Positions 3,087-3,541 of a stretch of DNA of 9,608 bases are shown here, piece by piece; position 1 is the stretch's first letter, and every line of letters begins with the position of its first letter. Under the pieces are notes generated by a model. It ran no database searches and was not told where the DNA came from. It saw only the letters and a program-made list of their open reading frames with translations. The position numbers were made by a program, and so were the translations under genes. The DNA is taken from the IMG/VR virus record IMGVR_UViG_2645727905_000011, one strand, 5' to 3'. This DNA comes from a virus. Taxonomy: Duplodnaviria > Heunggongvirae > Uroviricota > Caudoviricetes.

Positions 3087-3439
3087 AGCTGATTCTGCCT
3101 TTTCCGCCCAGCGTGAACACGTACTGGCGACACCCCAACAAAGGGGCGTTTGCTGGTAAGAGCCTGATAAGCGCGGCGGGGCGAAAATTCCAGAGCGCGG
3201 CGTGCGCAGCAATAGTTGAGCAGTTACGTCGTTTGCCGAAACCAACGTCGGCACCAGCTTCAGTAGAGATTGTGTTGTTTCCTCCGGATAACCGGATCCG
3301 CGATCTGGACAACTATAACAAGGCGCTGTTTGACGCCCTGACCCACGCGGGTGTGTGGGAAGACGACAGTCAGGTGAAAAGAATGCTGGTTGAGTGGGGA
3401 CCGGTTAACCTCGAAGGCTTTCCGGTAGAGCGGAATTGA
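3083..3439 (+). CDS. RusA-family resolvase paralog with altered C-terminus
   Basis: 118 aa; [11 protein letters not shown] and IRDLDN motifs. Last ~10 codons (LEGFPVERN) diverge from RusA and lie antisense to the helicase-like fragment, suggesting the 3' end was replaced at a junction. Confidence 0.7.
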
Positions 3440-3541
3440 AAACGCTTCCGGCTCAAGCGTTGCCAGAACGTCGCTGGCGGTTGGCGTTAATCCACCAATC
3501 AGCAGACCGCCGATAACGCTCGCTTCGATATCCTGTCTCAT
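3410..3541 (-). pseudogene. 5' fragment (about 44 codons) of a DnaB-family replicative helicase gene
   Basis: Translation [17 protein letters not shown]...[15 protein letters not shown] resembles the DnaB N-terminus (IEAEQSVLGGLML...DFY..HR.IF.E). GGGGGA SD upstream; ATGA coupling to the upstream gene. Homology is lost where the frame enters antisense rusA2 at about 3410. Confidence 0.55.

Follow-up and report, generated by a model that had tools for sequence, protein, structure and literature searches.

A phage helicase start joined antisense to a rusA gene: a very probable scar of illegitimate recombination in a defective lambdoid prophage

In the 9,608-bp stretch of phage DNA analysed here (the window), a minus-strand reading frame that opens like a DnaB-type helicase runs on as the antisense of rusA2, the second of two rusA genes. 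How did a helicase gene and a rusA gene come to share this DNA, and what is left of each? The original prediction described a helicase 5' fragment fused at about 3410 to the 3' end of rusA2, with the body of the helicase lost, the replication module non-functional and rusA2 possibly left with a chimeric C-terminus. Our results indicate that this join, Junction 2, is very probably one of three illegitimate recombination scars in a defective HK97/P22-like lambdoid prophage. The features on which the argument rests are collected in Table 1.

Table 1. Features of the rearranged region, with positions numbered in the window unless another sequence is named.
Feature	Position	Strand	Remarks
Inverted insert from a CPS-53/SfII-like phage early region, 2,057 bp	1351-3407	+	rep'-perC-dam-lexA-rusA
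Junction 1 crossover, shared CA	1351-1352		truncated ybcO-like nuclease gene joined to the truncated rep of the insert
rusA2, 118 aa: 108 native codons (3083-3406), then 10 foreign codons and stop (3407-3439)	3083-3439	+	tail is helicase-stub antisense
Mechanical 93-aa ORF: helicase stub, then rusA2 antisense; not a gene	3260-3541	-	from the ORF list
rusA TTA breakpoint	3405-3407; L011 4323-4326; L012 4323-4326		junction comparison
Junction 2 crossover, TA common to both parents	3406-3407		L107 identity up to 3407; HK97 P antisense from 3406
Phage replicative helicase gene (HK97 P / DnaB-like), 5' stub, 45 codons then broken	3406-3541	-	136 nt
O-like replication initiator, C-terminal remnant of ~115 codons	3538-3883	-	97-98% identity to the 3' part of HK97 O / L004 replication protein
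Shine-Dalgarno-like AGGGGGA	3546-3552	-	5-nt spacer to the helicase ATG at 3541; read from sequence
Junction 3 crossover, shared CGTTA	3879-3883		~4.16 kb deleted relative to the intact relative L004

The window matches the reverse strand of NZ_CP148378.1 (E. coli Z1323HEC0067; 2,962,714-2,972,321) over its full length at 100.0% identity. It is the early half of a defective lambdoid prophage, whose chromosomal neighbours are yegL/ibs and mdtA. In the PGAP annotation the prophage also has genes for the type III effectors EspJ and NleG, which lie at its far end, a tail-tip/holin pseudogene fusion and other wreckage. The fusion, of a tail-tip pseudogene with a holin pseudogene (PGAP), is at L003 8915-10139, ~1.9-3.1 kb past the left end of the window, and implies a further large deletion that spans from lysis to tail genes. 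Among the early-left genes of the window itself is an LprI-family (lysozyme inhibitor) gene with a signal-peptide-like N-terminus (6988-7713), which is probably a cargo (moron) gene. A search for Rfam families gave zero matches anywhere in the window.

The helicase side of the join was recognised correctly. Where about 44 DnaB-like codons had been predicted, the first 45 residues of the minus-strand frame are identical to residues 1-45 of HK97 P (45/45), and the corresponding DNA is 97-99% identical to genes annotated as 'replicative DNA helicase' in many E. coli genomes. Against the Pfam DnaB N-terminal profile PF00772 the stub scores 22.7 bits (E=1e-4), just below the 23-bit cut-off, as a fragment spanning only profile positions 6-46 of 103 would be expected to; it does not amount to a complete DnaB N-terminal domain. 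The stub is unmistakably the start of a DnaB-family P gene. The good ribosome-binding site expected in front of this start is also present, and the ATG overlaps the stop codon of the O remnant as ATGA (3538-3541, minus strand).

From codon 46 onwards the frame is rusA2 in antisense, as had been proposed, and at that residue its translation diverges from HK97 P (NRSPL... against IRKQARN... in HK97). The exact 93-aa sequence is absent from a collection of ~15 billion proteins, and PGAP treats 3401-3541 (-) as a pseudogene, an incomplete 'DnaB-like helicase N-terminal domain-containing protein' missing its C-terminus. Intact relatives in which the helicase continues could be found, as the original prediction had suggested looking for: in HK97, in L004 (the HK97-like prophage of E. 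coli MS 16-3) and in L005 the gene runs on to 459 aa, and these relatives are collinear with both flanks of the window. Of the 459 codons, 414 are absent here, and there is no C-terminal RecA-like ATPase domain with its Walker motifs, so the body of the helicase is indeed gone.

On the other side of the join, RusA2 is identical to SfII RusA over 108 of 108 residues and then diverges. The native end of SfII RusA after residue 108, IPEGKVEITISKYEKTAGAAA followed by a stop, is absent; 21 C-terminal residues have been replaced by 10 unrelated ones, and the reading frame closes at a fortuitous TGA. These last 10 codons, suspected of not resembling RusA and of being encoded by the helicase stretch, are helicase antisense, which confirms that the C-terminus is chimeric. 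In the comparison set, made up of 119 homologue representatives and 14 cluster members besides RusA2, none of the 133 RusA proteins has a GFPVER-type tail, making the tail of RusA2 unique among 134. The protein scores 52.8 bits against the Pfam RusA profile PF05866, where the gathering threshold is 22.8, while covering only profile positions 1-110 of 124. PGAP lists it as an intact RusA-family protein, WP_024224716.1.

Aligning the region in two parts, as suggested, gave separate megablast matches of rusA type and helicase type that meet at the junction. Among phages, the lexA-rusA match (SfII, mEp460, Stx phages and others; 95-97%) stops at 3415-3417, and the O-P match (HK97, HK446, mEp213 and Stx phages; 97-98%) starts at 3402-3406. 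Compared base by base, the window is identical to the rusA parent up to 3407 and to the antisense of HK97 P from 3406. As the two parental identities overlap only in these two bases, the crossover is placed in the TA. The rusA/helicase join therefore stands as predicted, but the DNA alignments move it from about 3410 to this dinucleotide. On either side of the join, hundreds or thousands of phage and prophage sequences match at 97-100% identity and carry on as intact genes, so it is not a chance resemblance.

Junction 2 is one end of an insert that carries a C-terminal fragment of rep, a PerC-family gene, dam, a gene for a LexA DNA-binding domain and the first 108 codons of rusA2. An intact CPS-53/SfII-like prophage of E. 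coli CFE299 (L107) differs from it by one mismatch, at position 1624, in 2,057 nt, and the identity of L107 to the window ends exactly at 1351 and 3407; identity to SfII itself is 97.1%. The rusA gene of L107 encodes the full 129 aa (WP_001565182.1), and KilA-N, DUF968 and Q genes come after it. The insert is oriented opposite to the flanking O'-P' and ybcO'-rusA1-ninH-Q genes. There are no inverted repeats at its ends (1351 and 3407), and no promoter-like site near either of them. Its lexA-like gene (2760-3086) encodes a 108-aa protein consisting of the LexA DNA-binding domain (PF01726) only, without an S24 peptidase domain, and is kept beside dam and rusA in SfII/CPS-53-like phages.

Outside the insert the window follows L004. 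Positions 2-1355 are collinear with Q-ninH-rusA1 and part of the next gene, 3402-3883 with the 5' end of P and the 3' end of O, and 3879-5000 with kil and a Rad52-like recombinase gene. Relative to L004, ~4.0 kb is gone between Junctions 1 and 2, comprising the remainder of P, the nin region and a 5' portion of the ybcO-like gene. Junction 1 is a tail-to-tail join between the ybcO-like gene (1165-1356, -) and the C-terminal fragment of an HTH replication gene (1353-1619, +), and PGAP calls pseudogenes on both sides of it. The deletion at Junction 3 takes the 5' part of O, cII, cro, cI, ral and others, leaving the O remnant fused straight onto the start of kil (3883-4035). Further along, a 155-aa HNH endonuclease gene (4998-5465) lies between the Rad52-like recombinase gene and ssb. 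L004 and L005 are otherwise collinear here but lack this gene, their recombinase gene and ssb abutting, and it looks like a free-standing homing-endonuclease insertion.

We consider it highly likely that Junctions 1 and 2 record an inverted insertion through illegitimate, short-microhomology joins in the course of prophage decay. The ~4.0 kb of resident prophage that starts at helicase codon 46, takes in the nin region and ends within ybcO would have been replaced by a 2,057-bp foreign piece, part of a CPS-53/SfII-like early region, which went in backwards. Each end of the piece would have been joined through 2 bp of microhomology, CA at one end and TA at the other. The outcome would be what is seen now, a 45-codon helicase stub that still has its ribosome-binding site and a rusA allele with a 10-codon antisense tail. 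The joins are taken to be illegitimate because only 2-5 bases are shared (2 at Junction 1, 2 at Junction 2 and 5 at Junction 3) and no inverted repeats flank the insert. The joins may record one complex event or several successive ones, in whatever order; there are no intermediates among the sequences found.

The three junctions travel together. Separate queries place each of them in just two of the 5,426 complete E. coli genomes, Z1323HEC0067 and Z1323HEC0423, the same two every time. The exact 118-aa chimeric RusA2 is found on 62 contigs, with the same gene order in every context read, and the 60-nt strings across the junction are identical in one IMG/VR contig and one metagenome contig as well. 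Because all three junctions co-occur and both contexts and junction strings are identical, we infer that the scar arose once, as a single event or a tight series, and has been inherited clonally. The single mismatch to a living donor type suggests that it is recent.

Several other explanations were considered. Homologous mosaic exchange was rejected on the shared bases at the junctions, which are too few at 2, 2 and 5. An invertible segment of the Hin/Gin/Cin type does not fit either: the insert ends lack inverted repeats, all carriers have one orientation and the context in the donor is collinear. The window has just one long inverted pair, the conserved N-terminal motif common to rusA1 and rusA2. 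Insertion of an IS followed by excision-deletion was discarded as well, there being neither IS sequence nor target duplication at any junction. The inversion of the insert, and the position of both its ends in phage early genes, would also be expected from a reciprocal exchange between two oppositely oriented resident prophages through two successive chromosomal inversions, and several lambdoid prophages are often present together in E. coli pathotypes of this sort. Such an exchange predicts that the missing helicase-nin segment sits inverted inside the other prophage. However, synthetic reciprocal junctions of Junctions 2 and 1 found no place with at least 80% coverage in the 5,426 complete genomes, both carriers included, and in Z1323HEC0067 the insert matches at a single place only, as does the junction region. 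We regard the exchange as extremely unlikely and dropped it. As the reciprocal junctions and a second copy of the insert are both absent, the lost DNA is evidently gone and the donor no longer resident. The probability of an assembly artefact or chimeric contig is negligible, since identical junction strings are present in two complete genomes, several independent drafts, the IMG/VR contig and metagenome contigs.

A different kind of alternative accepts the sequence and gives it a function: rusA2 might be a natural RusA variant with an alternative C-terminus, its antisense overlap with the helicase start having evolved. Its reading frame is intact, PGAP takes it for a normal family member, its catalytic residues are retained and the allele persists on all those contigs. 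Yet the tail is found in no other RusA protein of the comparison set and at the DNA level it is 97-99% identical to ordinary helicase genes in antisense; the conserved last strand of the protein is gone and its AlphaFold2 model degraded; and the single context in all carriers fits clonal spread, not selection. A functional variant is thus very unlikely, and we return to inverted, illegitimate insertion as the origin of the chimera.

What would such a tail do to the protein? RusA folds as a four-stranded mixed sheet flanked by two helices, and residues D70, D72, K76 and D91 of the E. coli protein have catalytic roles (PMC1636454). Their equivalents in RusA2, D74, D76, K80 and D95, are all retained. 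The alignment of RusA2 to the E. coli RusA structure 1Q8R ends at RusA2 residue 108, chain residue 104 of 120, and the protein lacks the G-(K/R)VEITI strand, which is almost invariant across 26 intact homologues. AlphaFold2 models, which are of moderate confidence and built on a shallow alignment, place strands at 2-5, 59-66, 98-105 and 113-120 and helices at 31-48 and 75-89 in an intact homologue (mean pLDDT 75.7). For the chimera the mean pLDDT is 66.9, with residues 104-118 under 50, and the model has neither strand 3 nor strand 4. RusA2 therefore lacks the complete fold of four strands, the C-terminal one included, and two helices. Because the last strand of the sheet is gone, RusA2 is probably misfolded or unstable, or else inactive, despite its catalytic aspartates and lysine, though even in truncated form it could dimerise or be partly active. 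Any Holliday-junction resolution supplied by the prophage would come from rusA1, which is intact (806-1168) and covers positions 1-123 of the Pfam RusA profile.

The proposal that the replication module is non-functional is strongly favoured by what remains of it. In addition to the loss of almost all of P, O is reduced to ~115 C-terminal codons, which PGAP calls a pseudogene 'missing N-terminus' (3538-3882, -), and a repeat search found no iteron family left in this remnant. The region of cI, cro, cII and pR was deleted at Junction 3. With the P body, most of O and this control region gone, and iterons missing from the O remnant, the prophage is almost certainly incapable of autonomous replication.

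The position of the break in rusA deserves separate comment. In L011, a 138-kb E. coli draft contig, rusA after ...ACCGGTTA is joined inside an SfV-type portal gene with TTA as microhomology, and in L012, a 57.7-kb contig, the same last base of rusA adjoins the start of the minor-tail gene M, with TA as microhomology. These independent prophage deletions thus cross over in the same TTA of rusA as Junction 2, and the junctions in L013 (about 4330) and L014 (about 1565) are close by, rusA breaking 3 and 8 nt beyond that point. In L001, L011, L012 and L014 and in 72 of 79 viral-contig rusA alleles, the TTA is preceded at a distance of 15 nt by a perfect Chi, GCTGGTGG, oriented to halt RecBCD coming from the deleted side. 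The break may therefore be non-random, with a site-preferred DNA end, for example RecBCD stopped at Chi or a Chi-like octamer, preceding the illegitimate join. This would refine the main mechanism, not replace it, and we think it unlikely. The near-identical donor rusA allele of the window reads GCTGGTTG, not a perfect Chi, and known Chi-dependent cuts fall ~4-6 nt from Chi, whereas the distance here is 15 nt. Within the window, perfect Chi sites occur only at 2133 (+) and 2489 (-), and neither Chi nor reverse Chi adjoins the other junction sides. Chi as the full explanation was rejected on both the donor allele and these other sides. A hairpin at the break (CCGG-TTATC-CCGG) was rejected too, its stem being only 4 bp long and disrupted (CCGA) in the actual donor allele.

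Wider searches did not strengthen the case for a preferred site. Pattern scans for more junctions at the TTA, in viral, metagenome and species-representative genome collections, gave no additional independent case: all matches belonged to the same lineage, were natural variants of rusA or were unrelated 16-mer hits, and 79 of 79 viral-contig alleles continue natively. A rough post-hoc estimate puts the coincidence at only about p=0.02, and the list of matches is biased to proteins that keep at least 108 native residues, with breaks at or beyond codon 108. It is thus quite doubtful that the TTA at codons 108-109 of SfII-type rusA is a recurrent breakpoint at which independent prophage-inactivating rearrangements start; hot spot or coincidence, the shared position is an unproven lead. 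If true, the TTA would bear the natural footprint of Chi-limited RecBCD degradation, or of some other site-preferred break, that feeds illegitimate recombination as prophages are domesticated. Separately, rusA codons 108-111 are where hundreds of draft contigs stop (the 110-aa form P0003, for one, is on 301 contigs), which suggests a repeat or mosaic boundary starting there in many genomes. Another sequence, P0030, comes from a metagenome scaffold of 1.2 kb and could be an assembly chimera.

Junction 2 is a case of ordinary prophage decay, real and of a kind already known. The helicase and O stubs are already RefSeq pseudogenes, and what the analysis adds is chiefly annotation: the exact anatomy of the locus, with its inverted foreign patch held by 2-bp microhomology joins, and the warning that the 'intact' label of WP_024224716.1 is misleading for a protein whose C-terminus is helicase antisense and whose fold is probably broken. 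The locus is a clean and apparently recent example of a cryptic prophage disabled and patched via short-microhomology joins. Any wider interest would lie in the possible recurrent breakpoint adjoining a Chi site.

Compared with its known counterparts, each half of Junction 2 is recognisable up to the crossover and then departs from them. The start of the stub, with its Shine-Dalgarno sequence and ATGA overlap with the upstream O-like gene, is the same as in helicases of the HK97 gene P (gp55) / P22 gene 12 type. HK97 P, however, has 459 codons, whereas the 45 kept here encode neither a complete N-terminal domain nor an ATPase domain, which makes the stub a pseudogene. The SfII gp45-type, CPS-53-like RusA allele has 129 aa, of which RusA2 shares residues 1-108 and differs afterwards; with E. 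coli RusA (structures 1Q8R and 2H8C) it shares the catalytic residues, but it has lost the segment of the fourth beta-strand.

The prophage as a whole resembles the rearranged cryptic lambdoid prophages of E. coli, DLP12, Rac, Qin and CPS-53, in which immunity, replication and lysis modules have likewise been deleted and genes truncated, while int/xis, recombination and cargo genes are retained in both. The joins differ from typical lambdoid mosaic boundaries. Those fall at gene borders or conserved linkers, whereas the joins in the window are intragenic, with 2-5 bp of microhomology and one segment inverted. They are more like short-homology illegitimate recombination in E. coli, which has the same 2-5 shared bases and loss of intervening DNA, without repeats or mobile-element ends, although in the window the mechanism is read from the scars alone.
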